DNA of 34,765 nucleotides from Sphaerobacterales bacterium (GTDB lineage Bacteria > Chloroflexota > Chloroflexia > Thermomicrobiales > UBA6265). The notes under the pieces are model-generated. The model was not told the origin of the DNA, did not search any database, and saw nothing but the letters and a program-made list of their open reading frames with translations. The first letter of the stretch is position 1; each line of letters begins with the position of its first letter. Location of the stretch: the NCBI GenBank assembly GCA_040376155.1, contig JBEIRG010000003.1, positions 1-34,765 of the forward strand, written 5' to 3'. Shown here in pieces: positions 2,804 to 34,765 of this stretch. The translations under genes were made by a program, and so were the position numbers.

Positions 2804-4177
2804 GTGGATCAGCACGCATTCGACCAGATGGCGCGATTGCTCGGTGGGGGGACCACCCGTCGCGCCGGGGTGACATCCGCGCTTGCCGCGGCGATCGGAT
2901 TCGCCGTTGTCCGTGATGGAGACGCCGTGGCCGGGCGGCCAGGCGCGGGCCATGGCGCGGGCCGGCGCCCCGGCTCCGAGGGCCCATGCGGCAGCGGTTC
3001 GCGCAAGGACAACAGCTGCACGAAGGACAGCCAGTGCTGCACCGGCTATTGCCAGCTGAACCTGAAGAACAAGGACCGGAAGGGGCGGTGCCGCTGTATT
3101 CGGAAGGGCAGATCCTGCACCGCGAAGCAGACGTGTTGCGGCGCCCTGACCTGCACCAATGGTGTCTGCGGCGGGAGCGCTCCGGAGGTCTGCGATGTCT
3201 GCCTTGCCGGGTGCGCGTATTCGGCGATCCAGCCCGCGGTCGCGGCGGCGGCGGCTGGCGCGACGATCAGGATCGGCGGGGGAACCTACCGCGAGACCGT
3301 GACGGTCGACAGGAGCCTGACGCTGAAGGCCTGCAACGGCGAAACCGTGACCTGGCACAACGGGACGGACGGGCAGCGGGCGCTGGTCGTGCCCCGCGCC
3401 GATCCCGGCCATGAGGTGGTGATCGACGGCATCACCTTCACCTCCGACACCACCAGCGGCGGCGGCATCTGGCAGTGGAACGGGTCGTTGACCCTCAGCG
3501 GCACGACGACCGTCACCGGCTGCACGGCGGTCAAGGGCGGCGGCGTGCAGTTCGGCGACGGCAAAAAAGGCGGTGCGCTCGTCCTGGAGGACACCGCGCT
3601 GGTGACCGCCAACACGTCCGATTCCTATGGCGGCGGCATCTTTCTCGACAGCTATGCCACGCTCGAAATGCGGGGCAACGCGGCGGTCACGAACAACACC
3701 GCCGGCAATGATGGCGGTGGAGTCATGGTCTACTACGGTTCGTCGATGACCATGCGGGATGATGCGACCGTCTCGGGCAATACGGCGAGCGGCAGCAGCA
3801 ACGGCGGCGGCATCTACATCTACGGCGGCGGCGTGGCGGCCTTCCTCGAAATGCACGACCGGAGCCGCGTGACCGGGAATGCCTCCGAGGGAAGCAATCA
3901 GACCTTTCACGGCGGCGGCGGCATCTATGTGTCGTCCGGGTCCACGATGACGATGGATGGCGACACGGTCATTTCCGGCAACACGGCGGCCGCGCCGGGC
4001 GGCGGCGTCTTCACGGAGGCGCCGGTGACGATGTCCGGGAACGCCTCGATCACCCAGAACACGGCGACCAGCGGCGGCGGCATGTCCGGCAAGAATTCCG
4101 GCGCCCTGACGAAGACCCCTCCAGCCTCGATTACCGGAAACACCCCCGATCAGTGCGGCGGGACGATCTCCTGCTAG
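2804..4177 (+). CDS. Secreted protein: Tat-like leader, double cystine-knot-like module, right-handed parallel beta-helix (pectin-lyase-like/Pmp GGG-I repeats)
   Basis: GTG start after GGAGGGG RBS; leader MDQHAFDQMARLLGGGTTRRAGV; Cys module 2981-3169; CAYSAIQPAV...GATIRIGGGTYRE beta-helix cap; repeated N-x-A-xx-GGG(I/V) turns. Confidence 0.85.
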   Translation: MDQHAFDQMARLLGGGTTRRAGVTSALAAAIGFAVVRDGDAVAGRPGAGHGAGRRPGSEGPCGSGSRKDNSCTKDSQCCTGYCQLNLKNKDRKGRCRCIRKGRSCTAKQTCCGALTCTNGVCGGSAPEVCDVCLAGCAYSAIQPAVAAAAAGATIRIGGGTYRETVTVDRSLTLKACNGETVTWHNGTDGQRALVVPRADPGHEVVIDGITFTSDTTSGGGIWQWNGSLTLSGTTTVTGCTAVKGGGVQFGDGKKGGALVLEDTALVTANTSDSYGGGIFLDSYATLEMRGNAAVTNNTAGNDGGGVMVYYGSSMTMRDDATVSGNTASGSSNGGGIYIYGGGVAAFLEMHDRSRVTGNASEGSNQTFHGGGGIYVSSGSTMTMDGDTVISGNTAAAPGGGVFTEAPVTMSGNASITQNTATSGGGMSGKNSGALTKTPPASITGNTPDQCGGTISC

Positions 4178-4382: not shown

Positions 4383-5725
4383 ATGGATCATGCGGCGTTC
4401 GACCGGATCACGAGGACCCTCGGAGCGGCGCCACCCGGCGTAGTGGGGTGAAGGCGGCTCTTGGGCTTGGGGCGGCACTTGGGTTGGGTGCGTCGGATGA
4501 CGTGGCGGCGAAGCTGCGGCCTGAGGGGCCCTGTGGGAAGGGTGGACGGAAGGACAACGCTTGCACGAAGGACAGCCAATGCTGCACCGGCTACTGCGAG
4601 CGGAACCTCAGGAACCGGGACAGGAAAGGCCGGTGCCGCTGCATCCGCAAGGGGCGGCCGTGCACTGAGAAGCAGACCTGCTGCGGCAAGTCCACGTGTG
4701 CCAGCGGCGTCTGTGGCAGCGGGCTGCCCGCGGAGATCTGCGACGTGTGTAGCAGTGGCTGCGCCTATTCCACGATTCAGCCAGCGGTCGCGGCGGCGGC
4801 ATCCGGGGCGACCATCAGGATCGACGCCGGCACCTACCGCGAGGACGTGACGGTCGACAAGAGCCTGACCCTGAAGGCGTGCAACGGCGCGACCGTTACC
4901 TGGTACAACCTGACCGACGGCCAGCGCGCCCTGTTCGTGCCCCGCGCCGATCCGGGCTACAACGTGGTGGTCGAAGGCATCACCTTCACCTCCGACTCCA
5001 CCAGCGGCGGAGGAATCCACCAGGAGAACGGAGCGTTGACGCTGAGCGGTTCCACGACGGTCACCGGCTGCAAGGCCGGGTATGGCGGCGGTGTGCATTT
5101 CGGCGACGGGAACAGCAATGGGGGCGTGCTCGTGCTGCAGGGCAGTGCGATCGTGACGTCGAACAGCAGCGACAGCTACGGCGGCGGTATCTACATGGAT
5201 AGCTACACCACGCTCGAGATGCGAGGAACCTCTGCGGTCACAAACAATGTCGCCAGCGGCCAAGGCGGTGGCGTGTTTACGCAGAGTTACTCGTCCATGA
5301 CCATGCGTGACGATGCGTCGGTCACAGGTAACACGTCCACAAGCGTTACGGGAGGAGGCATTGGAGTCTACGGAGGTACGGGGGCCTTCCTCGTGATGCA
5401 TGACCGGAGCAGCGTGAGTGGCAATAGCTGTCAGGGAAGCACGCAGTACGACGGCGGCGGTGGCGTAAGCCTAGGCACTCCCGGGTACCTGACAATGGAC
5501 GGCGATACCATCATTTCCGGCAACGCAACGACAGCATCTGGCGGTGGCGTTCGCACCAATGGGCAGGTGACGATGTCTGGAAATGCCGCAATCAAGCAAA
5601 ACACTGCGACGGGCGGCAGTGGTGGCGGCATCTTCGGTGCGGCCGCCGCTGCACTGACGAAGAACGCGCCGGCCACGATCACCGGCAATTCCCCGGATCA
5701 GTGCGGCGGGTCGCTTTCCTGCTGA
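4383..5725 (+). pseudogene. Tandem paralog of 2804-4177 with a 1-nt frameshift in the leader (pseudogene or sequencing error)
   Basis: ATG 4383 after GGAGG RBS reads MDHAAFDRITRTLG and stops at 4451. Restoring one base near 4422-4430 gives ...ATRRSGVKAALG, in frame with the 4448-5725 ORF, which aligns end to end with the upstream paralog. Confidence 0.75.
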
Positions 5726-10052: not shown

Positions 10053-11555
10053 TCAGGTCGCCGGGATGACCTCGGGCATCGGCGCTGACTCGGCGGGGGC
10101 GAGCGGGTCGATCTGCCGCGCGGCCCGCAGGCCGCTCTCGATGGCGCCCTCGACCCAGCCGCTCTTGAGGGTGGTGAAGTCGCCGGCGAAATGGATGCGA
10201 TCCTCGGGCCGGGTCCACTCGGCGATCATCCAGCCGCCTCCCGGCGGGAGATCGCCGAAGGACCCCTTGATCCACGGTTGCGCCAGCCAGTCGAAGGTCT
10301 CGGTGTGAATGACCTCGCCCAGGAGGCCCGGCATGTCGGCCTCGAACATGGCGACGAGATCCCGCTCGCGGGTTGCCGCCGGCATCGCGCGGTAGGCGTC
10401 CGAGTTCGGCCCATTCATATAGAAGAAGGTATTCCCGTGCCCACCCGGTTCGTTGCCGGTGATGTCGATCAGGCGTTCCCATGGGCGGTCTCCGCCCGCC
10501 ATTGGCCAGCCGTGCACGCCCTGCGTCAGCCATTGCGGCGTGCGGGTCTGGACGACCAGCTTGACGGTCCTGCTCCAGACCATCTCCTCCAACATCCTCG
10601 CCTTGCCCGCGGACCACGCGGGACGGACCTCGACCTCCGGGAGGACCGAGAAGGGAATGGTCGAAATGACCGCATCGCCCGCGAATTCGCGGCCACCTTC
10701 GGTGACGACGCGGACGCGCTCCCCGGTCTGGTCGATCAGGGTGACCGGAGCGTCCAGCACGACGCGGTCGCCGAGTTCCTCCGCGATCGCTTGCGGCAGC
10801 CGGTCGTTGCCGCCAGCGATGCGGTAGAGCGCCTGATCGCCGAAGTGGTAGGCGAGATCGCCCTCGATGGTGAGCGCGCTGGCGTCGCTTTCGAACAATC
10901 CGCCATGGGCGCTGAGCAGCTTGAGGAACATCTCCGAGCCGCCCGCGCTGAGGACCAGATCGGCGACGGTAAGCGGATCGAGGTGGGCGAGCATCTCCGG
11001 GTCAGGCCAGTTGGGGTCGATCACACTGGTATTGTCTATGTGATTGAGGAGCAGATAACGGTTCAGCGTCGCGGCGACCGTGACGTTGCGCTCATGCGGC
11101 AAGAGGTCCCACGGCCACGCGCCGGGACTCGCGCCGTCGCCGTACTTGCCATCGACGAGGTAGCGGGGGAGCCCATCGTTCATGCTGAGAATCGGCAGGT
11201 CGAACCTGAGGACGTAGTCCATCAGCGTGGTCATGTTGGCGCGGAAGTGGCCGCCGCCAGCCTCGGAGAACTGCCCATCCTGGAGCGGAATCGAGAGCAG
11301 CCGCCCCCCCACCCGGTTCTGGTGCTCGATCACCGTGACGTCATGCCCGCGGCGATGCAGCGCGAGCGCGGCGGTCAGGCCTGACATGCCGGCCCCCAGC
11401 ACCAGCACCTTCCGGGGGGAGGCCGCGTATGTGGTGGCAGAGGCCGTGTCCTGCGCTCGAGCCCGGATGAAGGGCGCGGTGGCGAGCCCCGCCCCGACGG
11501 CCCCGGCAAGCAGCGAACGTCGATTGATCGTGCGGTGGGAACGAGACGCCATCAT
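10053..11555 (-). CDS. Tat-exported FAD-dependent amine/amino-acid oxidase (flavin monoamine oxidase family)
   Basis: INRRSLLAG Tat motif and ARA cleavage site; VLGAGMSGLTAA, RVGGRL, IAGGNDRL, IHFAGDFT...GWVEGAIESG. Confidence 0.9.
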   Translation of the reverse strand: MMASRSHRTINRRSLLAGAVGAGLATAPFIRARAQDTASATTYAASPRKVLVLGAGMSGLTAALALHRRGHDVTVIEHQNRVGGRLLSIPLQDGQFSEAGGGHFRANMTTLMDYVLRFDLPILSMNDGLPRYLVDGKYGDGASPGAWPWDLLPHERNVTVAATLNRYLLLNHIDNTSVIDPNWPDPEMLAHLDPLTVADLVLSAGGSEMFLKLLSAHGGLFESDASALTIEGDLAYHFGDQALYRIAGGNDRLPQAIAEELGDRVVLDAPVTLIDQTGERVRVVTEGGREFAGDAVISTIPFSVLPEVEVRPAWSAGKARMLEEMVWSRTVKLVVQTRTPQWLTQGVHGWPMAGGDRPWERLIDITGNEPGGHGNTFFYMNGPNSDAYRAMPAATRERDLVAMFEADMPGLLGEVIHTETFDWLAQPWIKGSFGDLPPGGGWMIAEWTRPEDRIHFAGDFTTLKSGWVEGAIESGLRAARQIDPLAPAESAPMPEVIPAT

Positions 11556-11700
11556 CGGTTCTCCCGGCCGTTCGCAGCGACGAAGGTTGGCGCGACGATG
11601 AACCGCGCCCAGCCACCCGGGCAGGGCGGGTTCTCGAGGATTTGATCCGGTACGATAGCCGAATAGGGGTACAACAGCCATACCGTCACGGGAGAGCATC

Positions 11701-12927
11701 ATGAGCGACCGCGAGACCAGTCCCGGCCGTCCCGTCATGGGGCGCGCTACCCGCCGAGCCGCAATGGGCGGGCTTGCCGCGAGCGGGCTTGCGATGGCCG
11801 CGGCGGGCATCACCCGAAGCCGCGGCGCCTTCGCGCAGGAGGCCACGCCGGTGTCGGCTGCCGACGGCATGGCCCACGGGGATGCGCCTGCCCGTTTCGC
11901 GCCGGAACCGGGCGCGCCGCTGCTGGCGCGGAAGAGCGTCGCCGCGCTCACGCCGCAGGAGCGCACGGATTACGTGAATGCCGTGCTTGCCCTGAAACGG
12001 AAGCCCTCGCCGTGGGCGGATGGCCTCAGCGTCTACGACACCTTCGTGATGTGGCACCGGGATGCCTTCGGCTGCGCGGTAATGGCTGGTCACATGGGGC
12101 CGGCCTTCATGCCGTGGCACCGCGTGCTGCTGCGCCTGTACGAGGAGCAGCTGCGCGATGTCGATCCCGAGGTGACGCTGCCCTACTGGGACTGGACGGT
12201 GGACAATGGGACCGGGGCGCCGGTCTGGACGGACGACTTCATGGGTGGAAATGGCGACCCCGCCACGGGGATGGCCGTGACGACCGGGCCGTTCCGAAAG
12301 GGCGCGTGGGAGATTCAGATCTTCGATTACAACGACCGGGTGCGCTCGCCGTTCATCGTACGCGGGCTCGGTTCGGGGTTCCTGGCGACCGCCTTGCCGA
12401 CCGCCGAAGAAGTCGAGGCCGCGCTCGCCATCGAGACCTACGATGCCGCGCCGTGGAGCACGCTGGTCTCCGCAAAGCGGAGTTTCCGGCAGAATCTCGA
12501 GGGATGGCGCAACTGCGTGGAGGAAACGTGCGATCCGGAGAACGGCATGTCGCCCACCTGCACCGGCAGCCATGACCTGCACAACCGGGTCCATCTCTGG
12601 GTTGCAGGTGAGGCTGTGTTTGCCGAGGAGGGGCCTTCCGACGACGATCCCGCCGAGACCCCCTGCACGCATCCGGCGACCGACCTGATGGGAACGATGG
12701 CCTCCAACAGTTCGCCAAACGACCCGGTCTTCTGGCTGCACCACGCAAACATCGACCGAATCTACCAGATGTGGCTGGATCGCCACGGCCCGAACTATCA
12801 ACCCGTATCCGGCGGCCCATGGGGGCATAACCTGAACGATTCCATGTGGCCGTACAACCATATCGGGCTGCTCGCAAGCCCGGCGATGACCTTCAGCACG
12901 GAGGCGATGGGGTACCGGTACGAGTAG
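11701..12927 (+). CDS. Tat-exported tyrosinase (type-3 copper protein)
   Basis: ATRRAAMG Tat motif and AFA-QEATP; CuA WH...HMGPAFMPWHR, LPYWDWT; CuB HNRVH and SPNDPVFWLHHANID. Confidence 0.93.
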   Translation: MSDRETSPGRPVMGRATRRAAMGGLAASGLAMAAAGITRSRGAFAQEATPVSAADGMAHGDAPARFAPEPGAPLLARKSVAALTPQERTDYVNAVLALKRKPSPWADGLSVYDTFVMWHRDAFGCAVMAGHMGPAFMPWHRVLLRLYEEQLRDVDPEVTLPYWDWTVDNGTGAPVWTDDFMGGNGDPATGMAVTTGPFRKGAWEIQIFDYNDRVRSPFIVRGLGSGFLATALPTAEEVEAALAIETYDAAPWSTLVSAKRSFRQNLEGWRNCVEETCDPENGMSPTCTGSHDLHNRVHLWVAGEAVFAEEGPSDDDPAETPCTHPATDLMGTMASNSSPNDPVFWLHHANIDRIYQMWLDRHGPNYQPVSGGPWGHNLNDSMWPYNHIGLLASPAMTFSTEAMGYRYE

Positions 12928-12968
12928 GGGGTTCACCCCACGCTCAGGGCAATCATCGACCCGCGGAC

Positions 12969-12997
12969 TTGCCGCTACTACGGCGTAGCCGTAGTAT
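12969..12997 (+). promoter_or_regulatory. Sigma70-type promoter with overlapping palindromic operator (toxin-antitoxin operon)
   Basis: TTGCCG-17 nt-TAGTAT; perfect inverted repeat TACTACGGC-gta-GCCGTAGTA at 12976-12996. Confidence 0.7.
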
Positions 12998-13022
12998 GGT
13001 TTGAGGTGACAACGGAGCATCG

Positions 13023-13304
13023 GTGGACTTCGAATGGGATGCGGCGAAGGATGCGGCAAACCAGGAGAAACACGGCATCGCCTTCGCGAGAGCCGTGGCT
13101 GTGTTCACGGACCCGTTCGCGATCGACGAGGACGGCACGACTCCGGAACATGGCGAGAATCGCCGGAAGGCCGTCGGCCGGGTCGGCGCTGAGTTCGTGA
13201 CGGTGATCTATACGGACCGACCCAATGCACGCCGAATTCTTTCCGCCAGGAGGGCGCGTCGAAATGAGCGAGTCAAATACCATCAGGGTTCGGCTTCTGG
13301 ATGA
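13023..13304 (+). CDS. BrnT-family (DUF497) ribonuclease toxin
   Basis: FEWDAAKDAANQEKHGIAF...VF.DP, GENR, VIYT, RILSARRA; GTG start after GGAG. Confidence 0.92.
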   Translation: MDFEWDAAKDAANQEKHGIAFARAVAVFTDPFAIDEDGTTPEHGENRRKAVGRVGAEFVTVIYTDRPNARRILSARRARRNERVKYHQGSASG

Positions 13305-13677
13305 CGGCACGGTCTTGCAGATCCATGAGAACGGGACGTCGACGCCGGTCGTCGATACGAGCGACTGGGCGCGCGTGGCGGCGATGACCGAGGACGAAAT
13401 CGAGGCCAACGCCCTCGCCGACCCCGACAACCCTCCCATTTCTGACGAGGAACTCGCGCGGATGCGATGGTCGATGGACCCGCGTGCGGTGAGAGGCCGG
13501 CTGAATCTGACGCAGGAGCAATTCTCCGAACGTTTCCGGATTCCCCTCGGCACCCTGCGCGACTGGGAGCAGCAGCGAAAGGAACCCGAAGGGGCAGCCA
13601 AGGTCCTGTTGCAGGTGATTTCCGTCCACCCGGAGGCAGTCGTGGATGCGCTTCGGTACCGGCCGGTAGACAACTGA
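13264..13677 (+). CDS. Cognate antitoxin with C-terminal XRE/Cro HTH
   Basis: DWARVAAMTEDEIEANALADPDNPP N-terminal part; LNLTQEQFSERFRIPLGTLRDWEQQRKEP HTH; overlaps the toxin by 41 nt. Confidence 0.85.
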   Translation: MSESNTIRVRLLDDGTVLQIHENGTSTPVVDTSDWARVAAMTEDEIEANALADPDNPPISDEELARMRWSMDPRAVRGRLNLTQEQFSERFRIPLGTLRDWEQQRKEPEGAAKVLLQVISVHPEAVVDALRYRPVDN

Positions 13678-13825
13678 GCTCCGGTGCATCGTGTGTCCGA
13701 CGTTCGCAGACCTTGATCTGTAAAGGGTAATCGGTACCGGCAACATCGCAGGTGTGGTTGCGGCCCCGCCACCAACGGGTGATGTGGCCGTTTGATCCGG
13801 GTTCAGGTGGACCGGGAGGCCTGCC

Positions 13826-14623
13826 CTACGCCCCGCTGACCGGCGTTCCCGCCACGGGAGGCTCGATCGTCACCGGGGCGTCGAAGGCCGTGAGATCGAG
13901 GCGGCGGATGACGCCAGCGTCCTCGCCGGGGAAGATCGGGCCTTCGAGTTCGATCCGGCGTGGGCGGTTCATCGCGTCGAACCAGATCGAGGCGGGGAGC
14001 GGGTCGGGCACGAGGTTCGCGGGGAGCGCTCCATCCGTGGCGGCTCCGGCGGCGTCCGCGATGCGTCGAAGGTCGACGACGCCGTCGATCCGGCGCACCG
14101 GTTCGCCGTCGATGCTGCCGTCCGGGCCGAGGACCGGGTCGGTGAGGACCGAGAGGGCGGCGAGGAAGATCAGATCCGGGTTCGCGAGCAGGGCGAGGAT
14201 GTCGCCCGCGCCGGGGGAGTCCGCCTCCTCGCCGGAGGATGTCTCGATCCAGTCGTTCCCGCCGGAGCGGGGGTCGGACACCCAGAGGCGGTCTCCCACG
14301 CCGATCACGGTCACGGTGAGATCCATGATGGCGGCGGCAGTGGCCTCGATCCGGGCTTCGAATCGGTCGGGACGCAACACGTCGCCCTCGATGGCGCGCA
14401 GGGTGAGGGCGTTCAGCACGGAGGTGCGGCCCTGCGGGGTGGTCAGCGAGAAATGGAAGGAGGCGAGCGCCGCCAGAGCCTCCGCGCCGGCGCGGAGCAG
14501 GCCGGATGCATCCTGAGCGGCTGCGGCGCGGGGGCGCGTCGAGCGCCCGAGGCTGGCGAGCGCCGCGGCGACGAGGACTGCGCGGCGGGTGCGTGTGGCC
14601 GGGTCTGGAACGGGTGGTGTCAT
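13826..14623 (-). CDS. LppX/LprAFG-family exported lipid-carrier-like protein
   Basis: TRRAVL leader; LASFHFSL, IEGDVLRPDRFEA, C-terminal LTAFDAPVTIEPP typical of this family. Confidence 0.7.
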   Translation of the reverse strand: MTPPVPDPATRTRRAVLVAAALASLGRSTRPRAAAAQDASGLLRAGAEALAALASFHFSLTTPQGRTSVLNALTLRAIEGDVLRPDRFEARIEATAAAIMDLTVTVIGVGDRLWVSDPRSGGNDWIETSSGEEADSPGAGDILALLANPDLIFLAALSVLTDPVLGPDGSIDGEPVRRIDGVVDLRRIADAAGAATDGALPANLVPDPLPASIWFDAMNRPRRIELEGPIFPGEDAGVIRRLDLTAFDAPVTIEPPVAGTPVSGA

Positions 14624-14805
14624 CTGCGCTCCCGGGGGGATGGAAATGGCGGCGCCTCAGCCGCCGGCGCGCCCGGAACGGCGATGCAGGATCGCCGTAA
14701 TGGTAGCCGCGCCGCTGCCCCGGGAGTATGCTGCAAGCGAACAGGGGGTGGCCCCGCGCGCGGTCTGGCCGGCGGCGGCGGGCCGTCCCGCGACGGAGTT
14801 CTCGC

Positions 14806-16263
14806 ATGATTCCCACCATCGCATCCTCCCCGAGCGTCGTCGTGCTGGGCGGCGGCATTTCCGGGCTGGCCGCTGCGTACCGGGTGCTGCAACGCGCGCC
14901 GGGGGCGCGGGTCACCATTGTCGAGGGGGAATCCCGGCTTGGCGGAAAGATCGCCACCGAGCGGGGCGACGGTTTCCTGATCGAATCCGGGCCTGACTCC
15001 TTCCTCGCGGCGAAACCGCGCGGTGTGGGCTTGTGCGAGGAGCTCGGGCTGGGGCCGGAGTTGCAGGCCATCACCCCGCGACCGCACCGGGCGTACGTGT
15101 TGCGCGGGAGCCGGCTGCTCGAACTGCCGGAGGGCCTTACCGGGCTGGTGCCGACGAAACTCGGGCCGCTCGCGAAAACCCCGCTCCTCTCCCCGCGCGG
15201 CAAGGCGCGGATGGCGCTGGACTACGCCATCCCCGCCCGCACGGACGGGGAGGATGAGCCGCTCGGCGGGTTCATCCGGCGCAGGCTGGGGGACGAGGCG
15301 TGGGAGCGCCTCGTGGAACCGCTGATGGCGGGCATCTACGCCGGGGACGGCGACCTGCTCAGCGTGATGGCCACCTTTCCCCAGTTGCGGCAGGGGGAGG
15401 CCGCGCATGGTGGCCTCATCCGGGGCGTGCTGGCGGCGAAGGCGGCGAGCGCGGCGGGGTCCGGTCCCGCGAAACCGGCATTTCTCACGCCGCGCGAGGG
15501 GCTTGGCCGTCTGGTCGAGAGGTTGGAGGCGCGGCTTCGCGCGGCGGGCGTGGAGATCCGGTTGGGGGTCCCGGCGCGGCAGGTGCGGGAGCGGGCTGGG
15601 GGCGCGGAGGTCGTTCTGCGTTCGGGCGAGACACTGGCCGCCGATGCGGTGATCGTCGCGACGCAAGCGTGGGCGGCGGGGGAGTTGCTGGCCGGGGTGA
15701 GCGAACCGCTCGCCGCCGATCTTCGCGCGATTCCCTACGCGTCGAGCGCCATTGTCTCGCTGGCGTGGCCGCAGGCGGATGTGCCCCGCGTGCTGGAGGC
15801 GCATGGCTACCTGAATCCGAAGGTGGAGAACCGGGCCGCGCTGGCGTGCACGTGGACCTCGCAGAAATGGGCGGGCCGCGCGCCGGAGGGCCACGTGCTG
15901 ATGCGCATCTTCATCGGGCGTTTCGGGCGGGAGGAGTTGCTGGCCGGAGACGATTCCGACCTCGAGCGGATCGCGCGGGATGAAGTGCGGGAGCGGCTGG
16001 GCATCACCGCCGCGCCGGAACTGGCGCGGGTGCAGCGCTGGCCGCAGGGGATGCCGCAGTTCCTGCTCGGCCATCCGGAGCGGGTGGCGCGGATCGAGTC
16101 GGAGGCGGCCGGCATCCCGTGGCTGGCTATTGCCGGCAATGCCTACCGGGGCGTCGGGTTGCCGGACGCCATCGCGTCCGGGGAGGCGGCGGGGGAGCGG
16201 ATCGCCGCGCTGCTTCGCCGCCGGCAGGCCGGGGAACCCGCCGGGACGGGGGCCGGTCTGTAA
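14806..16263 (+). CDS. hemY: Protoporphyrinogen/coproporphyrinogen III oxidase
   Basis: VVVLGGGISGLAAAY, RLGGKI, IESGPDSF, LVEPLMAGIYAGD, RWPQGMPQF, GNAYRGVGLPDAI. Confidence 0.93.
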   Translation: MIPTIASSPSVVVLGGGISGLAAAYRVLQRAPGARVTIVEGESRLGGKIATERGDGFLIESGPDSFLAAKPRGVGLCEELGLGPELQAITPRPHRAYVLRGSRLLELPEGLTGLVPTKLGPLAKTPLLSPRGKARMALDYAIPARTDGEDEPLGGFIRRRLGDEAWERLVEPLMAGIYAGDGDLLSVMATFPQLRQGEAAHGGLIRGVLAAKAASAAGSGPAKPAFLTPREGLGRLVERLEARLRAAGVEIRLGVPARQVRERAGGAEVVLRSGETLAADAVIVATQAWAAGELLAGVSEPLAADLRAIPYASSAIVSLAWPQADVPRVLEAHGYLNPKVENRAALACTWTSQKWAGRAPEGHVLMRIFIGRFGREELLAGDDSDLERIARDEVRERLGITAAPELARVQRWPQGMPQFLLGHPERVARIESEAAGIPWLAIAGNAYRGVGLPDAIASGEAAGERIAALLRRRQAGEPAGTGAGL

Positions 16264-22215: not shown

Positions 22216-23955
22216 ATGGACGATCGGCGATTTGATGCGCTGACGCGCGTGCTTGGGGCGGTAACCGACCGCCGCGGAGGCGTGCGGGCCGCGATCGGGG
22301 CAGCCTTCGGGCTGGCCGCGGGCGGCTCCGCGCTGGCAAAGGAAAGCGGCAAGGGCAAGGACAAGGGCAACGGCAAGAGCGGCGTCCGCGCCGCGGGCGA
22401 AGTCCAGCCGCAGGGGCCCTGCAAGTCCACCCGCCGCAAGGACAACGTCTGCACCGCCGATGGCGAGTGCTGCAGCAAGTTCTGCGACAAGGGCAAGGGC
22501 AAGACCAACAAGGACAGCAAGGGCCGCTGTCGCTGCAAGAACCGCAACGATGAGTGCAACCTGGACATCAACTGCTGCAAGCGCGGCGGGCAGCAGATGT
22601 CCTGCAACAAGGGGCGCTGCAGCGAGCTGATCCCGACGACCATGCGCTGCAAGGTCGGCGGCTGGGCCTGCAAGGACAGCCTCGCGACCTGTACGAGCTA
22701 CATCGCGGGGGTTCCGTACGGGCTCTACTGCCTGTTCGGCGTGAACCAGCAGTGCACGAACGATGCCCAGTGCACGACCGGGTTCTGCTCGAACGGCATC
22801 TGCAAGTACCAGCTGACGGAGATCTGCGGCACCGCTGGCGCGAACACCTGCGGCGACCGCCGGGCGTCCTGCACGACGTACCGCTTCGGGTCTGACGTGT
22901 CTGCCCGCTGCCTGCTCCCCGAGGGGCAGTCGTGCGGCGCCAATGCCGAGTGCGTGACGAGCGCCTGCGTCGGCGGCTTCTGCGTCGAGGGCGTGCCCAC
23001 CAGCGTGAGCTGCCTCGGCGATCCGAAGGACTTTTGCGCCAACCCGGACGCGTACTGCAGCACCTACAACAACCTCATCAACGGCCAGGGCACCTACTGC
23101 CTGCTCGAAGACGGGTACGAATGCACCGAGGATGCCGAGTGCCTCAACGCGTACTGCGACGCCGGCACCTGCCAGACCTGCGGGCTCGGCCAGACCGGTG
23201 AGAGCTGCGATGTCGACAGCGACTGCTGCGACGGCTTCTGCAGCGTGATCGAGGGTTCGGGGCGCTGCATCGGCAAGAAGACGGTGTGGGCGCATCTGAC
23301 ATGGACCACGACGCCGCACCCCGATACGACGAAGGCCACATTCGACACCTGGATCTGGATGCCGCAGACGGTTCCGCAGGAATCCGCCGACAACAACCAG
23401 TATCCCGACTTTTACAACGGCGGCGATGTCGTGAGTTACATGGCGAACTGGTATCCGTGGGACACCATCGCTGATCCGAACACCGAAGTGCCGGATGTTT
23501 GGATTGACGTGGACGGCGTCTCTGCTCCGGGCAGCGAGCGTGCCATGTGGTTCTACCCGGTGCCAAAGGGAACCTACCGGTACGCGATCAAGAACTGGGG
23601 CTTGTGCCCGTCCGACAACGGTTCCACCACCACCTGCGGAATGACCGGATCAACCGACGACTGGAGCGGCATCGACGACAGTTATGCGCCGTTCAGCAAC
23701 CCGTCGTACGACACCCAGGTCATCTTCTACGAGTACAACAAGCAGATTCGCAAGTTCGTGCTCCCGTGGGGCGTGACCTCGAGCCACTACTACTGGTGGC
23801 AGGTGACCGACCTGACGTTCGATGAGAACGGCTGGTTCAAGGAATTCACCACGGCTTCAAGTTCGGTCAATGGGATCATCCGCGACTGTGCGCCGGCGCT
23901 CTACCCCGGCAACGTTGGCGGCGAGACCTCGAACATCTGCCCGTACACGAACTGA
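22216..23955 (+). CDS. Secreted Cys-rich protein: Tat-like leader, double knot module, three 8-Cys repeats, an extra knot, and a YfaP/DUF2135-like C-terminal domain
   Basis: MDDRRFDALTRVLGAVTDRRGGV leader after GGAGG; Cys module 22414-22620; C-terminal LTW...FDTWIWMP...IDVD...PGSE...GTYRYAIKNW recalls YfaP-like domains (tentative). Confidence 0.8.
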   Translation: MDDRRFDALTRVLGAVTDRRGGVRAAIGAAFGLAAGGSALAKESGKGKDKGNGKSGVRAAGEVQPQGPCKSTRRKDNVCTADGECCSKFCDKGKGKTNKDSKGRCRCKNRNDECNLDINCCKRGGQQMSCNKGRCSELIPTTMRCKVGGWACKDSLATCTSYIAGVPYGLYCLFGVNQQCTNDAQCTTGFCSNGICKYQLTEICGTAGANTCGDRRASCTTYRFGSDVSARCLLPEGQSCGANAECVTSACVGGFCVEGVPTSVSCLGDPKDFCANPDAYCSTYNNLINGQGTYCLLEDGYECTEDAECLNAYCDAGTCQTCGLGQTGESCDVDSDCCDGFCSVIEGSGRCIGKKTVWAHLTWTTTPHPDTTKATFDTWIWMPQTVPQESADNNQYPDFYNGGDVVSYMANWYPWDTIADPNTEVPDVWIDVDGVSAPGSERAMWFYPVPKGTYRYAIKNWGLCPSDNGSTTTCGMTGSTDDWSGIDDSYAPFSNPSYDTQVIFYEYNKQIRKFVLPWGVTSSHYYWWQVTDLTFDENGWFKEFTTASSSVNGIIRDCAPALYPGNVGGETSNICPYTN

Positions 23956-24329: not shown

Positions 24330-27041
24330 ATGGACAAGGAGTGGCTTGGTCGCATTGCGCCTGCGTTCGCCTCGGCGATGGATCGCAGGCAGGGGGTACG
24401 GGCGTCGGTCGCGGGGGTGGCGGCGGCGCTCGCCGCGTTCAGCGCCGGGGCCGAGAAGGGCGGCAACCGCGACAACCGCGCCGAGCGGCGCAAGGACCGC
24501 CGCGTCGAGGATCGCCGCGACCGCCAGCGCGAGCGCCAGGCGGAGGATCATGACGCCGCCAATCCCGCCACCCCGGATGGGCCGGGTGGCGACGGGTCGG
24601 GAGCGACCGGAGCAGCGGATCGCGCCGCCACCCGGGGGAACCCGGGAGCGGCAGGGCCCTGCGGCGATGGGTCGGTGCAGCAGAACCGCTGCACGAAGAA
24701 CAGCGACTGCTGCACCGACATCTGCGAACGGGACCTCACCAACAAGGACAAGCTTGGCCGCTGCCGGTGCAAGCGGGTCAACGACAGTTGCGTGTCGAAC
24801 GCGAACTGCTGCGCCGGATCCTCCTGCAAGCAGGGCGTGTGCCGCAACAACGGCACGCCCTCCGGCCCGAGCGGCGCCGGGGGAACCGGCCCGACCGGAC
24901 CAGTGGGAGCGCCGTCCATCATCCGTGGCAGCGTGGCGAACCCGGGACAGCTTCCCGCGAGCGGGAGCGCGGGCGACGGGTGGATCGACCAGTCGACCGG
25001 GGATCTCTACACCTGGGACCCGGCGACGGCGCAGTGGGTCAACGTGGGCAGGATCGCCGGGGTGACAGGCCCGACTGGCGGCGGCCCGACCGGGGCCGCG
25101 GGCGCGCCGATGGTGATCCAGGGAAGCGTGGCCAACCCGGGCGCGCTGCCGGGGAGCGGGAATCCGGGCGACGGGTACATCGACGAAAGCTCGGGCGACA
25201 TCTACACGTGGGACCCGGTAGGGGCGACGTGGGCGGATGGCGGCCGGATCGTGGGCGATACCGGGCCGACGGGGATGACGGGTCCGGTTGGCGCACCGGT
25301 GGTGATCCAGGGAAGCGTGGCCAACCCGGCGGCGCTGCCGGGGAGCGGGAATCCGGGCGACGGGTACATCGACGAGAGCTCGGGCGACATCTACACGTGG
25401 GACCCGGTGGGAACCACGTGGACGGATGGCGGCCGGATCGTGGGCGATACCGGGCCGACGGGGATGACGGGTCCGGTTGGCACCGGTCCCACCGGGACAA
25501 CCGGCGCCACGGGACCATTCGGGACTGGTCCGACCGGCGCGACCGGGCCGACCGGCAGAACGGGGCCGACCGGGGCAGCCCCGGGGCCGACGCTGCCGAC
25601 GGGCGCCATCCAGTACAACCGTGACGGGTCGTTCTACGGGGAACTGCCGCTCCGCTGGTTCCACCAGGGCGAGGCCTACCGGCTGTGGGTGAGCAACTCC
25701 GACGGGCCGACGGGGGCGGCAGTGGTGGGTCTGCAGGCGGCGACCGGGCAGACGGGGCCGTTCATCCGGATGGAGAATTCCGGTTCGGCGGAGTTGATGA
25801 GGATTCACGCGCCGGATAGCTCTTCAGTCCACATCGGAAAAGAGACCGGCAGATACAACACGGGGACCGAATCGGTCGCGGTGGGGCGAAACGCGCTGGA
25901 AAACGCGACCTCCTGGTACAACACGGCAATCGGCGCTGGCGCGATGCGGACGAGCACCAACGGGTCCGGCACGGCGATCGGGTACAACGCCCTGACATCG
26001 CTGACGAGTGGGAAAGCCACTGCAGTTGGGACCAACGCAGCCCAGTCTCTCACGACGGGCGATCGCACCGTGGCGGTTGGCAACGACGCCCTGTCCAGTA
26101 TGACGACCGGTCGAATGAACACGGCCATCGGCGACTCGGCGTTGTACGCCGGCACCACAGGATGGGAATCGGTCGCGATCGGATACCAGGCACTGGCGGC
26201 CGTGACGACCGCCGGCAGCAACACGGCGGTGGGATCGAAATCCCAGGCTGTCTCCACCGGACAAAGCAATACCTCTCTCGGCTATCACTCGCTGTTTTCC
26301 TTGACCACTGGCGAAAACAACACCGCGGTGGGAACCGGGAGCATGGATTCCGCGACGAGCGGGTCCGGCAACACGGCCCTCGGGCAGGGTTCGCTCTACG
26401 CCACGTCAGGCAGCAATAACGTCGCCATCGGGAAGGGCACCGGAAGCCTCATCACCACTGGGTCCGCCAACGTGGTCATCGGGTACGACTCGGAGCCGGC
26501 TTCTGCCACCGACAGCAACCAGTTGTGCATCGCCAACTTCATCTACGGAACGGGACTCAGCACGACGCAAGGCGATGTCGCCAACGCCAAGATCGGCTTT
26601 GGCGTGAAAGCCCCGGCGGAGACCCTGCATGTCGGAAGCGAAGGCGGCGGCAACGCGACGGTCCGCATCAATTCGCTGGCGGGGACGGGCAACCGCGCGG
26701 TCTACTCCGACGCCAACGGCACGCTGACGAACACGTCGTCCGACGCGACGCTGAAGACCGATGTCGCGCCGATCGCGGCGGGGTTGGCGGCGGTGACGGC
26801 GCTGAACCCGGTGAGCTTTGCGTGGAAGGACACGGCGCGGTTCGGGCCGCAGCGGGAAATCGGCCTGCTGGCGCAGGAGGTGAACGCGGTCGTGCCGGAG
26901 GTTATCGGGGTCAACGCCGACGGCACGCTGTCGGTGGACTACCCGAAGCTGATCGCCCCGGTGATCCGGGCGATCCAGGAGCAGCAGGCGCAGATTGCGC
27001 TGCTGGTCGAGCGGGTGCGGCAGCTGGAGAGCGGCCAGTAA
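24330..27041 (+). CDS. Secreted fibre protein: leader, double knot, collagen-like G-P-T repeats, YadA-head-like beta-roll repeats, peptidase S74 intramolecular chaperone and coiled coil
   Basis: [23 protein letters not shown] leader; Cys module 24654-24842; GPTGxT triplets; NTA(I/V)GxxAL repeats; [10 protein letters not shown]...LNPVSFAWK...IGLLAQEV...[21 protein letters not shown]. Confidence 0.88.
24905..25484 (+). repeat. Three intragenic ~63-aa repeats (189-bp period for the near-identical pair)
   Basis: GGTGATCCAGGGAAGCGTGGCCAACCCGG at 25112 and 25301, with a more diverged copy near 24917; unit [33 protein letters not shown]. Confidence 0.92.
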
Positions 27042-27831: not shown

Positions 27832-28371
27832 TCAGGCGAAGAGCGCGCCGAGATCCAGCGAGAAGCCGGGGAGGACGTCGCCGCCGTCGAGGGTGTCGGC
27901 GGCGGTCAGCCATCGCGTCGCGCCACCGTGCGCGTATTCGGCGACGGTGTTCCTCGCCGGGTCGACAATCCAGATCAGCCGGACGCCAGCATCGAGGTAG
28001 ATGCGGATCTTTTCCTGCATGTCGCTGGCGCTGTTCGACGGCGAGAGCACTTCGACAGCGAGGTCGGGGGCCAGCGAGAGGTAGCCCGGTGTGCCTTCAG
28101 CAGGCGCCTGGTCCGCCTGAATGAAATGGATGTCAGGGGCGAGCACGGTATCGGGATTACGCATCAGGATGAATCCAAGTTCGCCGCCGACGACCCCCGC
28201 GTGCTCGGCCGCCGCCCAGTTGCCAAGGGCAAGCACCAGGCGATGGGTCAGGCGAGAATGGATGTATCCGGTAGGAGACATTGGCTGCAATGCTCCCCTG
28301 ACGAGTTCGCCCTGCTCGGATTCGGGCAGCAGGAACAGTTCTTCAGCGGTGAGGAGTTGGGTGGCGACCAT
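27832..28371 (-). CDS. Uma2 (DUF820) family PD-(D/E)xK endonuclease
   Basis: ELVRG, LAPDIHFI, APDLAVEVLSPSN, KIRIYLDAGVRLIWIVDP, VLPGFSL; GGGAGG RBS. Confidence 0.92.
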   Translation of the reverse strand: MVATQLLTAEELFLLPESEQGELVRGALQPMSPTGYIHSRLTHRLVLALGNWAAAEHAGVVGGELGFILMRNPDTVLAPDIHFIQADQAPAEGTPGYLSLAPDLAVEVLSPSNSASDMQEKIRIYLDAGVRLIWIVDPARNTVAEYAHGGATRWLTAADTLDGGDVLPGFSLDLGALFA

Positions 28372-28446
28372 GAGCATCCTCCCGGCGGCGACCATCGGCA
28401 AGCTCACCTGAATCATACGCCACCTCGGGATGGCGGCGGCCCCGGC

Positions 28447-28986: not shown

Positions 28987-29057
28987 TGGCTTCCTCCCGG
29001 CGGCGGGAATCACGCAGCGTTGATCGGATGATACGCCCGGCATGGGCTGGTGGGTAG

Positions 29058-32551: not shown

Positions 32552-34765
32552 TCAGGCAGGGACGATTTCGAGACGGACGCCGCTCTCGGTCACCGGCACG
32601 CCGCGGATGACGAGCAGGCCGTCGCCGTCCGGGGTCACCGTTCCGGTGTCGATCTGCCCGTTGCCGGAGACGTTGCGCGTCGTCCAGCGATAGGTGCGGC
32701 CAGCCTGGATGTCGAAGGTCTGCACCCGGCGCGGCACGACGGTGACGACGTGATCGACCCCGTCGATGCTGCGCAGGGAGATGCGCCAGCGGGTTGTCTC
32801 GTCGACGGGCGCGCCATCCCATGCCATCCACGAGGAGGACCATTGAAGCCCGAGACGCCAGCTCGCTTCGTGATCCGGCGCGGCCCGGAAGGAGACGCGC
32901 GGGCAGGTTCCGGTGCAGGGGGCGCACTTCTTCTTCTGGGCTTTCTTGCCCTTCCTGCCCTTCTTGCCTTCGCAGACGTTGGAGCAGCACTGGCTGCCGC
33001 GGGTGCAGCGACCGCCGGAGGCGCGGCAGGTCGAGCCGCTGCCGCCGCCGCCGTTCCCGCCACCGCCATCATTGCCGCCATCATTGCCGCCATCATTGCC
33101 GCCATCGTTGCCGCCATCGTTGCCGCCGCCGCCACCGCCGCCGGATGGATCCTGATCGTCAGCGGCGATGCCGGGGACGGTCTCCGAGAGGACGGCGCGG
33201 AACGCGGCGAAGGGCACAAGCGAGTCGTCGACGCCGAAGTTGCGCTGCAGGCCATTCCAGCCGGTCCACGAGTGGCCCATGTCGATGGTGACCCCGCCGA
33301 TGGCCTGCCCCGCGCCTTCGAGACTGGTGTAGAAGGGACGGCCTTGCGTGGGCCATTCGATGATGTCGTCCTGCAGGCCGTGGGCGACGCCGAAGGGAAC
33401 CATGTCATCGCGGCGGCGGCGCAGGAGCTGGGCGGTGTGATCCTGCCAGGTCCAGACGCCGGTCCCATCGTATCGCTGGAGATGATCGGCCCAGCCACGG
33501 GGGGCGCGGATCGCGACGGGAAGATCGAGATCGATCGCCCCCCATTTCCAGGCGACGTCGGTGCGCCAGTCGGCGCCGCCGCCGTCGCCGGAGGTGGCGT
33601 AATCGGTCATCGGTTCGCCGGCATAGGCGGCGGCAAAGGGTTTCGGATAGCGGGTCGCCATGGCGAGGGTGCCGGAGCCGCCCATCGAGCTGCCATAGAG
33701 ATAGACCCGCTCGGGGTCGATGCGGGAGCCGAGGACCGGGTCGCGGAGGGCGTCGTGAACCATCCGCAGGAGGCGCTGCTCGGTGAAATTGGCGATGCGG
33801 TCTCCGTTGGCGGGGGCTGCGCCGGTGCGGAAGTCGCAATCCTCCGCGAAACCGAACCACCAGGTCTGGGCAGTGTCGATCGGCCGAACCTCCCAGCCGC
33901 AGAAGTAGGGCGAGCGGTTGAGGTCGCGGCCGTTTGCGTCGCCGGACCAGCCGTGCAGCGAGACGTGGAGCGGCATCACGGTGGGCACGATGCCGTCGCG
34001 GCAGTTGCCGGGATTGGGTGCGGCGATGACGAAGGTGTAGGCGTAGGCGAGGGCGTGGTCGAGGCGTGGATCGGTCTCCGAGAGGCCGAGGAGGCGATTG
34101 TCGACGGTGGTTGGAGCATGGAAGGTGGGGTTCCAGGTGTGGAGGTCCATGTACTGGATGTAGACGCGCACGTCGCCGCTCGCTTCGGTGCGGGCGAGAA
34201 CGGGCCGAGGGTCGGCGACCGATTCCGCGACCGGGCCGGTCTGCTGGGGCGTCTCGGGCGCGCCGGCGGCGGGAACGACGACGACGGCATAGTGGGCATT
34301 CGCGGCGAGGTCGATCTCATGCTGGTCGGGAGTCCAGACGAGGAGGCCCGTGCCGTCCGCGAGTTGGGAGCCGCCGTTCTCGATGACGGCGCGCTCGACG
34401 TAGCGCCACTGCCAGTCGTAGTCGCTGCCGCCGTTCTTGAAGCGCTCGGTCCAGATGCAGGATGACCCGGGCCCGACCTCCGCGAGAAGCTGGGCTTGCG
34501 CGAGGTTGCCGGAGGTGATCGCCACGGAATGGCGGTAGACGCGGTACCGCTCGCCGGTGAGATCGGCGCGTTCGGTCCAGGTGATGAAGGTCTGGCCGTT
34601 GCGATGGGCGGCAGACGGGGCAGCCAGCGGGGAGATGCGAGTGGACATCCGCGGGTTGGACCGGGTTCGGACGCGGCGGTTGCGCCCGGCGCCCGACGCA
34701 GCCGCTGTGGCAGATGACCGCGCGGCCCTGGCGGCAAGCGGCGCGGCGATCAGCGCCGCACGTCC
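32552..34765 (-). CDS. Alpha/beta-hydrolase-fold protein (5'-partial) with an inserted Gly/Asn linker and Cys-knot-like module
   Basis: VSLHGW and IDPERVYLYGSSMGGSG nucleophile elbow, HGLQDDII, MGHSW. The frame stays open from 34648 to the window edge (GRAALIAAPLAARAA...), so the true start probably lies outside the window. Confidence 0.75.
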   Translation of the reverse strand, partial: GRAALIAAPLAARAARSSATAAASGAGRNRRVRTRSNPRMSTRISPLAAPSAAHRNGQTFITWTERADLTGERYRVYRHSVAITSGNLAQAQLLAEVGPGSSCIWTERFKNGGSDYDWQWRYVERAVIENGGSQLADGTGLLVWTPDQHEIDLAANAHYAVVVVPAAGAPETPQQTGPVAESVADPRPVLARTEASGDVRVYIQYMDLHTWNPTFHAPTTVDNRLLGLSETDPRLDHALAYAYTFVIAAPNPGNCRDGIVPTVMPLHVSLHGWSGDANGRDLNRSPYFCGWEVRPIDTAQTWWFGFAEDCDFRTGAAPANGDRIANFTEQRLLRMVHDALRDPVLGSRIDPERVYLYGSSMGGSGTLAMATRYPKPFAAAYAGEPMTDYATSGDGGGADWRTDVAWKWGAIDLDLPVAIRAPRGWADHLQRYDGTGVWTWQDHTAQLLRRRRDDMVPFGVAHGLQDDIIEWPTQGRPFYTSLEGAGQAIGGVTIDMGHSWTGWNGLQRNFGVDDSLVPFAAFRAVLSETVPGIAADDQDPSGGGGGGGNDGGNDGGNDGGNDGGNDGGGGNGGGGSGSTCRASGGRCTRGSQCCSNVCEGKKGRKGKKAQKKKCAPCTGTCPRVSFRAAPDHEASWRLGLQWSSSWMAWDGAPVDETTRWRISLRSIDGVDHVVTVVPRRVQTFDIQAGRTYRWTTRNVSGNGQIDTGTVTPDGDGLLVIRGVPVTESGVRLEIVPA
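33063..33122. repeat. 12-bp tandem repeat encoding (NDGG)5
   Basis: CCGCCATCATTG x3 followed by CCGCCATCGTTG x2. Confidence 0.9.

Follow-up and report, generated by a model that had tools for sequence, protein, structure and literature searches.

Tandem six-cysteine units resembling inhibitor cystine knots form a cationic N-terminal module in about ninety genes of a freshwater Chloroflexota bacterium

The stretch of DNA considered here (the window) is a contig of 34,765 nucleotides from an uncultured Sphaerobacterales bacterium of the Chloroflexota (GenBank assembly GCA_040376155.1, contig JBEIRG010000003.1, positions 1 to 34,765), whose genome assembly amounts to 4.1 Mb in 492 contigs with 67% G+C and is 80% complete. 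Six-frame regular-expression scans, also run genome-wide, place in the window four tandem 12-cysteine modules, in genes that we call A to D, and two single six-cysteine units, one further along gene C and one in gene E. Each module is built of two units with the C-C-CC-C-C framework familiar from inhibitor cystine knot (ICK) peptides. Its pattern, invariance, expansion, position in the protein, charge, and domain partners are observed directly, and from these we work toward a proposal for its fold and, more tentatively, for its function.

All four tandem modules lie on the forward strand, with unit 1 and unit 2 at 2987–3091 and 3095–3169 in gene A, 4532–4636 and 4640–4714 in gene B, 22420–22530 and 22534–22620 in gene C, and 24660–24764 and 24768–24842 in gene D. 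The single unit of gene C follows at 23179–23268 on the same strand, and that of gene E occupies 32924–33028 on the reverse strand. A preliminary description of this DNA had proposed the same split at 2981–3169, 4526–4714, 22414–22620, and 24654–24842, along with the single unit at 23179–23268; all of these were recovered, the earlier start coordinates taking in a conserved Gly-Pro ahead of the first Cys. Its second single unit, at 32903–33028, is also present, but it lies on the minus strand within an alpha/beta-hydrolase gene and the range holds eight Cys, two further ones extending the unit to 32903 in a C-x2-C-x3-C tail after the sixth Cys. Chance does not explain such counts, which are far above those of shuffled sequence: the window has 10 units and four tandem modules, against a mean of 0.39 units (maximum 2) and no tandem module in 200 within-open-reading-frame shuffles, and the whole genome yields 294 units and 83 tandem modules, where five shuffles gave 15–30 units and none in tandem.

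In gene A, unit 1 reads C-x9-C-x5-CC-x3-C-x12-C, its last loop being variable and rich in Lys, Asn, and Asp, while unit 2 reads C-x6-C-x5-CC-x4-C-x4-C and is joined to unit 1 by a single Arg. The loop lengths of both units fall within the consensus ICK ranges for the C-C-CC-C-C framework. The two units are homologous to each other by hhalign (probability 92.9%, E 3.7e-7, 19 columns), and they also occur alone: among 333 domain hits, 221 keep 12 of 12 Cys, 20 consist of unit 2 only, to which come 4 more where the residue aligned at the last Cys position of unit 1 is not Cys, and 2 consist of unit 1 only. Both lines of evidence agree with the earlier division of the 12-Cys module into two six-Cys units.

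Gene A (2804..4177, forward strand) encodes 457 amino acids in which translation, Pfam, and an AlphaFold2 (AF2) model distinguish a leader, a linker, the module, and a right-handed beta-helix; it corresponds to database protein P0005 (100% identity over the queried module region and 99.1% over the full length by BLASTP, with the start at 2804). Its leader, which resembles signals of the twin-arginine translocation (Tat) pathway, spans 2804..2911 and has an N-region of the form xDxxxFDxxxRxLG, twin Arg at residues 19–20, and an Ala/Gly-rich stretch. A Gly/Arg/Pro-rich linker (2912..2986) then ends in a conserved xGP before Cys I. The passenger (3170..4174) is a right-handed parallel beta-helix by Pfam, AF2, and Foldseek, with GGG(I/V) repeats like those of PMP proteins; the helix starts about 8 residues past the module. 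Although its Pfam hits to NosD and PMP are weak, the mature part is modeled with a pLDDT of 95.5 and a pTM of 0.85, and the best Foldseek match is the mannuronan epimerase AlgE6 (5lw3, E 9.3e-4), followed by pectate and alginate lyases, pectin methylesterases, chondroitinase B, and phage tailspikes.

Gene B (about 4383..5725, forward strand; module at 4532–4714) is a paralogue of gene A with 64.8% identity. Its leader begins at an ATG at 4383 and meets a stop at 4449–4451, with the twin Arg, the hydrophobic stretch, and the module in the next frame, so that the break lies near 4429–4451. Contigs from four freshwater or lake metagenome runs, X1 to X4, cover the region of genes A and B; the figures for X2 and X3 are identical, and these two may be one data set. 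Over gene B, the X2/X3 contig shows 22 base differences and, behind 4429, one additional G that brings leader and module into a single frame. This G is lacking in the window and in X1, possibly the window's own source, and the leader of gene B is therefore frameshifted here, either really (as a pseudogene or strain variant) or through a consensus error. In the same metagenome data, depth rises and many short contigs end at 2987–3045, so that module DNA behaves as an assembly repeat; some contigs join the module of gene A to that of gene B. Many contigs of the bacterium's own genome also begin or end within modules, and the family has probably contributed to the fragmentation of the assembly. 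No RNA data set was listed as holding the stretch.

The remaining module genes of the window differ in what they carry. Gene C (22216..23955, forward strand) encodes 579 amino acids with 46 Cys and matches no Pfam family; its leader (22216–22340) and module are followed by eight-Cys repeats, the single unit, and a C-terminal domain. The eight-Cys repeats, three in number at about 22648–23175, have the form C-x6-C-x6-C-T-[ST]-Y...Y-C-L...C-x5-C-x4-C-x4-C and recur in relatives P0013, P0015, and P0102, while the C-terminal domain (23269–23952; 220 amino acids) is Trp/Tyr-rich and without a Pfam or NCBIfam match. Gene D (24330..27041, forward strand; 903 amino acids) has a divergent leader (24330–24450), a long charged linker, the module (24660–24842), GPTG collagen-like repeats, and at residues 804–858 a Peptidase_S74 intramolecular-chaperone domain. 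This architecture is like that of a phage tail fiber, yet the gene has a secretion leader and no phage neighbors, and the genome holds five such paralogues. Gene E (32552..34765, reverse strand), an open reading frame (ORF) still open at the contig end, joins an alpha/beta-hydrolase through a Gly/Asn/Asp linker to the very basic six-Cys unit and a C-terminal domain.

Among 154 database relatives surveyed at E ≤ 1e-4, Beta_helix, NosD, or Chlam_PMP domains occur in 27, propellers of the NHL, SGL, or lactonase type in 12, Peptidase_S74 in 5, Dickkopf_N (on extra downstream units) in 3, and pentapeptide repeats in 1, most of the remainder having no family. Single-linkage BLAST clustering of 80 C-terminal parts from the genome puts 61 in one cluster and 5, gene D included, in a collagen/S74 cluster. 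One relative, P0051, has its module (residues 53–118) together with MalT-like TPR and GerE domains and may reflect a gene call that fuses a module gene with the regulator next to it.

A hidden Markov model of the family matches 92 stop-to-stop ORFs in this genome (a second genome search counted 95 matches). In an alignment of 64 paralogues, made up of the four window modules and 60 of the remaining 79, all 12 Cys are invariant in every sequence and the consensus is xGP-CGxGxxKxNxCxxDxxCCTGxC-(variable basic loop)-GRCRCxxxGxxCxxxxxCCxxxxCxxGxC. When 1.84 billion cluster representatives were searched with a profile, 509 matched at E ≤ 0.001, 120 of them at E ≤ 1e-10; those with names are all proteins of metagenome-assembled genomes (MAGs) entered as 'Chloroflexota bacterium' and labeled hypothetical or beta-helix. 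We surveyed 40 related genomes. All five of the same genus have matches (131, 14, 13, 3, and 3), 9 of 19 from other genera of the family have 1–4 weak matches each (7 of 17, again with 1–4 each, if the unpublished G011 and G015 are left aside), and the remaining four families of the order have none in 16 genomes, so that among these relatives the expansion is restricted to the genus. A search for related loci from gene A found no relative, whereas a tighter module alignment found 26 loci, 25 of them in contigs of one other Chloroflexota MAG record; the 26th, a 12-residue match in a Thermoanaerobaculia record, was disregarded. On the module, every Pfam and NCBIfam model stays below its cut-off, a single-sequence search of the PDB with it returned nothing at E ≤ 0.001, and our literature search found no description of a 12-Cys module family.

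More sensitive comparisons agree with one another, though as indirect evidence of the fold. When the family profile is run against all PDB sequences, the top match is cysteine-rich domain 1 (CRD1) of Dickkopf Dkk4 (5o57_A, E 0.0017, 21.8 bits), aligned over profile positions 7–61 with 10 of 10 Dkk4 Cys on module Cys; next come matches to single units, including omega-atracotoxin, maurocalcin, and DkTx, at E 0.04–0.3. Scanned one by one against Pfam at E ≤ 1, the 64 modules touch Dickkopf_N (PF04706) in 53 cases (best E 0.00025), Conotoxin_I2 in 41 (best E 0.00021), Toxin_12 in 29, and UPF0506 in 21; all of these are below cut-off, as are the other families that match more than one module, nearly all of which are ICK-type toxin families. 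For Dickkopf_N, the window module scores 20.4 bits against a gathering cut-off of 25 bits, and the three relatives that exceed the cut-off do so through extra downstream units (P0018, for example, with 41.5 bits over profile positions 21–51). The ten-Cys 4+6 pattern of Dickkopf_N differs from the 6+6 of the module and is found only in variants such as C302_1354.

The Dkk4 alignment offers a route to the disulfides. In the excerpted text of the Dkk4 study, the disulfides of CRD1 are mapped as C1–C3, C2–C4, C5–C8, C6–C9, and C7–C10, all three of those in the C-subdomain lie at ICK positions, and the Dickkopf and colipase domains are proposed to be duplicates of a single ICK-like subdomain (PMC6078440). 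Transferred through the alignment, this pairing would give II–V and III–VI in unit 1 and I–IV, II–V, and III–VI in unit 2, and the two additional Cys of the bacterial unit 1 fall exactly at I and IV. An I–IV pair in each unit gains support from natural variants, in which both of these Cys are replaced at once: in unit 2 of C383_9575 and C266_3557 (both collagen-type) and of P0015, in unit 1 of C302_1354, and in the third unit of C19, that is, in five proteins from at least four lineages whose close paralogues retain all six Cys. No variant with loss of II+V or III+VI was found. The eight-Cys 'CTTY' repeats, P0124, P0112/117, and C277 were set aside as candidate cases of the same loss; they are ambiguous, with a Cys at or near position I or at the previous unit's last Cys. 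Since Cys I and IV are lost together and units are found alone, the disulfides are most likely confined within units.

Structural modeling gives a compatible picture. An AF2 model of the 64-residue module, made from the 64-sequence alignment (pLDDT 87.1, pTM 0.68), has short strands or bridges beside Cys II, V, and VI of both units; DSSP assigns them to residues 13–14, 25–26, and 36–38 in unit 1 (Cys at 14, 25, and 38) and to residues 46, 60, and 63 in unit 2 (Cys at 47, 59, and 64). These predicted strands would make up the small antiparallel sheet that the ICK definition asks for. The 31 rows that Foldseek listed for the model are no random selection. By their titles, ICK-type toxins or inhibitors account for 18, including DkTx (a double-knot toxin) and a double-ICK toxin from a remipede; the others are 4 colipases, 2 Dickkopf proteins, MIT1, 5 further Cys-rich domains, and a fungal protease inhibitor. 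Local superpositions on ICK toxins reach 1.3–1.8 Å over 24–31 columns, for instance protoxin-1 with a root-mean-square deviation (rmsd) of 1.3 Å and 39% identity over 28 columns, and maurocalcin with 1.7 Å over 28 columns. VIA-align, with weak scores, favored the colipase 1eth_B (Z 3.5, rmsd 4.6 Å over 52 residues) and draxin (Z 2.5), and a second look added MIT1 (Z 2.7); the best ESM Atlas score, 0.76, serves as a lead only. The check by AlphaFold and Foldseek that the preliminary description had proposed therefore yields a confident model and mostly ICK, colipase, and Dickkopf neighbors, but no significant match. Its ICK-like reading of each unit is supported nonetheless by the sub-threshold Pfam neighbors, the superpositions on ICK toxins, the Cys-for-Cys alignment with Dkk4 CRD1, and the variants that lack Cys I and IV together. 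From model and sequence together we consider that each six-Cys unit is probably a small disulfide-bonded, knottin-like mini-domain of ICK type, and that the two homologous units, with their one-residue joint, form a compact domain of the Dickkopf-CRD1/colipase kind with three cystines per half.

The likeness to Dkk4 CRD1 extends to the arrangement of two tandem subdomains with a joint of one or two residues, to the loop lengths of its C-subdomain, which are identical to those of unit 2, and to charged surfaces, a large basic patch on CRD1 being described in the excerpts (PMC6078440). The ten-Cys Dickkopf pattern reappears in module variants whose unit 1 has lost Cys I and IV, whereas the typical module differs in its 12 Cys and the extra I–IV pair of unit 1, in being bacterial, in its Tat-like leader, in its beta-helix, propeller, or collagen-like passengers, and in having no Wnt-pathway context. 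The colipase fold (pancreatic colipase, MIT1/prokineticin, Dickkopf CRD2) supplies the best whole-module structural neighbor, with weak scores, but has 10 Cys and one inter-subdomain disulfide, and colipase has hydrophobic finger tips where the module is polar and basic. The preliminary description included neither this relationship, with Dickkopf CRD1 and colipase rather than a venom family as the nearest domains, nor the scale of some 90 paralogues, nor the common Tat-like leader.

That leader is shared by genes A to D and most paralogues, in the form M(D/E)xxxFDRxxRxLGxxx(T/S)RR followed by an Ala/Gly-rich hydrophobic stretch. Of the 225 proteins or ORFs that contain a full module, 187 have this leader upstream, and the distance from twin Arg to module has a median of 39 residues. 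Exactly one full module is present in 220 of the 225, and the tripeptide ahead of Cys I is EGP in 126, AGP in 47, QGP in 22, and SGP in 9 (204 in total); of 147 database proteins, 145 have their module start at residue 150 or earlier (median 61). The linker behind it is variable and Gly/Pro/Thr-rich. The module is thus almost always the first domain of the mature protein, right behind the leader. The leader has the look of a Tat-type signal: the twin Arg is invariant, TatC is encoded in the genome (190.7 bits), and a tyrosinase in the window has a classic Tat signal of similar shape. However, genes A to D match none of the curated Tat-signal models (Pfam TAT_signal, TIGR01409) at E ≤ 0.1. The N-region before the twin Arg (MDxxxFDRxxRxLG) is a feature additional to the Tat-like signal and is missing from ordinary Tat substrates such as the window tyrosinase. 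In this genome it is carried by 70 ORFs with a module, by 30 more whose Cys content is 5% or higher, and, on our own reading of the 23 rows listed, by about 8 plausible others, including one protease-like and one solute-binding-like protein. Possibly it is what a chaperone, or a targeting step of its own, recognizes. A lipobox at the GPC motif was ruled out, the Cys lying a median of 39 residues past the twin Arg, beyond the hydrophobic stretch, and without a Leu-x-x-Cys context.

This position in the protein bears directly on how the module relates to toxins. ICK peptides (spider, scorpion, and cone-snail toxins, the conotoxin framework VI/VII, and plant and sponge knottins) share the C-C-CC-C-C framework, and the module has sub-threshold hits to Conotoxin_I2, Toxin_12, and Toxin_29; unlike them, it belongs to no venom family and is a domain of large proteins, not a free peptide of 30–40 residues. 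Double-knot toxins and the secreted cysteine-rich repeat proteins (SCREPs) collected in ScrepYard, such as DkTx and the remipede Xibalbin, likewise combine tandem homologous disulfide-rich units in a secreted protein, an architecture that the module displays in its homologous units and upstream leader, yet here the linker is a single residue, the two units are probably one rigid domain and not two tethered heads, and the whole is merely the N-terminal tag of a larger protein. Excerpts of the SCREP papers describe bacterial tandem disulfide-rich proteins as numerous and mostly of unknown domain type. Could the proteins nonetheless be precursors, from which the double knot is cut off to act as a free cationic peptide of antimicrobial or toxin-like kind? 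The module resembles defensins and knottin toxins in being both cationic and rich in disulfides, DkTx and the remipede toxin are among its Foldseek neighbors, and some relatives are short (128–190 amino acids). However, many of the short entries stem from short contigs, one module stands ahead of a large domain in 220 of 225 proteins, and the variable linkers past it hold no conserved cleavage motif, and we give this reading only the slightest chance. Release by cleavage just before GPC, as the preliminary description had suggested, fares no better, given the Gly/Pro/Thr linkers, the large passengers, and the lack of a conserved cleavage site, which together make the module a domain of proteins of 300–1000 amino acids.

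The module is markedly basic. Net charge, counted as K+R−D−E, is +10 in gene A, +11 in gene B, +10 in gene C, and +3 in gene D, which bears out the cationic character earlier ascribed to the first two copies; across 83 modules the mean is +6.9 and the range 0 to +20, with 82 of them above zero, whereas the remainder of the same proteins averages −4.1 per 100 residues. Cys makes up 20.6% of the composition, Gly 12.7%, Lys 10.4%, and Arg 9.6%. Only one loop varies in length, the last of unit 1, which spans 4–15 residues, is Lys/Asn/Asp-rich, and has a mean charge of +2.6.

We propose that the Tat-like leader with its family-specific N-region would export the protein, leaving the module as the first folded domain, 10–20 residues from the mature N-terminus or, if the leader is uncut, from the membrane. 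The cationic module would then act as a protease-resistant electrostatic anchoring or binding head, holding its passenger (a polysaccharide-active or adhesin-type beta-helix, an NHL propeller, or a collagen/tail-fiber-like rod) on an anionic surface, which may be the cell's own envelope or an extracellular polysaccharide matrix. This reading draws on the basic, rigid module at the start of acidic secreted proteins and on the adhesin-like or polysaccharide-active passengers, as well as on a DsbA-like oxidoreductase encoded in the genome, the failure to find SLH domains in that genome (80% complete), and the absence of a sortase-type C-terminal end from module proteins. The functional part is inferred only, and we regard it as possible, with the balance somewhat against it; a disulfide-knotted cationic anchoring or binding head, rather than a toxin, is still the best explanation as a whole, to which we would give a little less than an even chance.

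Known small domains offer precedents for such a role: hevein/CBM18, fungal CBM1, and SLH are appended to enzymes or adhesins and hold them on a polymer surface, as we propose for the module. They differ in using aromatic platforms or specific glycans where the aromatic-poor module would bind by charge, and none matches it in sequence or fold.

A number of observations weigh against the anchoring head and the fold beneath it. The Dkk4 match is marginal and the sequence compositionally biased; Foldseek with the module model gave nothing at E ≤ 0.001, the best match being colipase at E 0.38 and the best ICK toxin lying at E 0.97, with no significant likeness to a solved ICK; and in VIA-align only 2 of 48,161 chains reached Z ≥ 2, though small domains rarely score well in structural comparison. 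Odd numbers of Cys occur in C345_5753 (where Cys I is Phe and IV is retained), P0112/27–51, and P0109/355–374. Aromatic residues are scarce in the module (Y 0.8%, F 0.6%, W 0.1%), in contrast to known small carbohydrate-binding knottins. VKOR was not found in the genome (80% complete), and the neighborhood survey revealed no recurrent maturation or anchoring partner gene near modules, only STAND-type regulators. Finally, proteins that travel by a Tat-type route have normally folded beforehand, in the reducing cytoplasm, which suits a cofactor domain better than an oxidatively folded one.

The Tat-like route is indeed the main oddity of the system and keeps alive, at low odds, a reading in which the Cys take up metal (Zn, Cu, or Fe-S) while still in the cytoplasm and the domain, thus loaded, passes through Tat in its folded state. 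The Tat-like leader and the presence of TatC fit this, as does a metallothionein-like composition in which the 20.6% Cys is combined with much Lys and Gly and almost no aromatics or His. Against it, the Cys spacing matches ICK and Dickkopf rather than known metal motifs, Cys are lost as I+IV pairs, six Cys per autonomous unit are at odds with Cys4 sites, and the same leader is found on NHL propellers and a protease; moreover, no metallothionein, Zn ribbon, or Fe-S family appeared among the Pfam, NCBIfam, and PDB hits. Metal binding is, in our judgment, highly improbable.

Position and leader could also be accommodated if the module had no ligand and served as a rigid, protease-resistant N-terminal cap or stalk, or as an export or folding aid paired with the special leader. 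The module is always the first domain past the leader, the N-region occurs mainly on Cys-rich cargo (70 and 30 ORFs, against some 8 others), and the beta-helix of gene A begins almost directly behind the module. A pure spacer, though, would have no need to conserve a strong positive charge where its passenger is acidic, and the single unit of gene E is internal, between the enzyme and the C-terminal domain, which leaves this quite unlikely.

A somewhat better, if still unlikely, alternative to electrostatic anchoring is that the module is a specific recognition domain, docking its passenger to one particular protein, whether of the producer or of a different cell. Lipase is the partner of colipase, and channels are the targets of ICK toxins. 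The nearest known domains are all protein binders, with Dickkopf binding beta-propellers according to excerpts of the Dkk4 study (PMC6078440); the variable charged loop of unit 1 could tune specificity, and passengers like tail fibers and tailspikes suggest recognition at a cell surface. Set against this are the roughly 90 paralogues with near-identical conserved residues, mostly Gly, Asn, Asp, and Thr and structural in appearance, a uniform positive charge that looks generic, and the lack of a recurrent partner gene nearby. Among the rivals we would accordingly rank protein recognition first, then the ligand-free cap or export aid, metal binding, and release of a free peptide.

Around the modules, the STAND-type regulators mentioned above are large and of two classes, AAA_16 with LuxR/GerE, or HTH_XRE-AAA_16-TPR. 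Within 4 kb of module genes there are 10 ORFs of the HTH-AAA-TPR type on 9 contigs and 4 of the AAA-LuxR type on 4, in all 14 ORFs on 12 distinct contigs; C154 has two, and the window contig (C23) and C455 have one per type. In the window, one of the AAA-LuxR type lies directly upstream of gene C (19049–21742), and others in the genome are at C154:211–2592, C215:6949–9453, C101:16706–18853, and C200:6625–9324. Elsewhere in the window, the tyrosinase with the Tat signal (11701–12927) is flanked by flavin amine oxidases (10053–11966, reverse strand, and 14728–16263, forward strand) and has an LppX_LprAFG-like lipoprotein beside it (13826–14623), so that 10053–16263 may be a secreted phenol/amine oxidation cluster. 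Two adjacent genes for Uma2-family putative endonucleases occupy 27832–29043 on the reverse strand.

What this family might mean depends on how far the resemblance to Dickkopf and colipase can be taken. The fold class is known; what appears to be new is a bacterial 6+6 Dickkopf-like form, used as a fixed N-terminal tag behind a special leader and expanded to about 90 copies in one genome. ICKs are described from animals, plants, and fungi, not bacteria, in the excerpts of the Dkk4 study (PMC6078440). ICK and Dickkopf-type knots are regarded as eukaryotic inventions, and here some 90 genes of a bacterial genus carry such a domain. In its boldest form, which we think rather doubtful, the proposal would be that the module is a 'complete' bacterial Dickkopf/colipase domain with two full ICK knots, equivalent to the ancestor postulated by the Dkk4 authors, a single subdomain in duplicate, and a universal cationic surface-targeting tag with a dedicated leader on about 2–3% of the genes of one freshwater Chloroflexota genus. 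If the domains are truly homologous, the ICK/Dickkopf fold predates eukaryotes or has crossed between domains of life. The family lets ideas on how the Dickkopf/colipase/ICK fold originated be put to the test. The passage of a 12-cysteine domain along a Tat-like route is a puzzle in its own right, and the approximately 500 cluster representatives amount to a small, very stable, naturally diversified scaffold. For an uncultured and abundant freshwater lineage, the module is a candidate new surface-anchoring or binding module, and, should the proposal prove true, the family would be a new class of bacterial anchoring domain.

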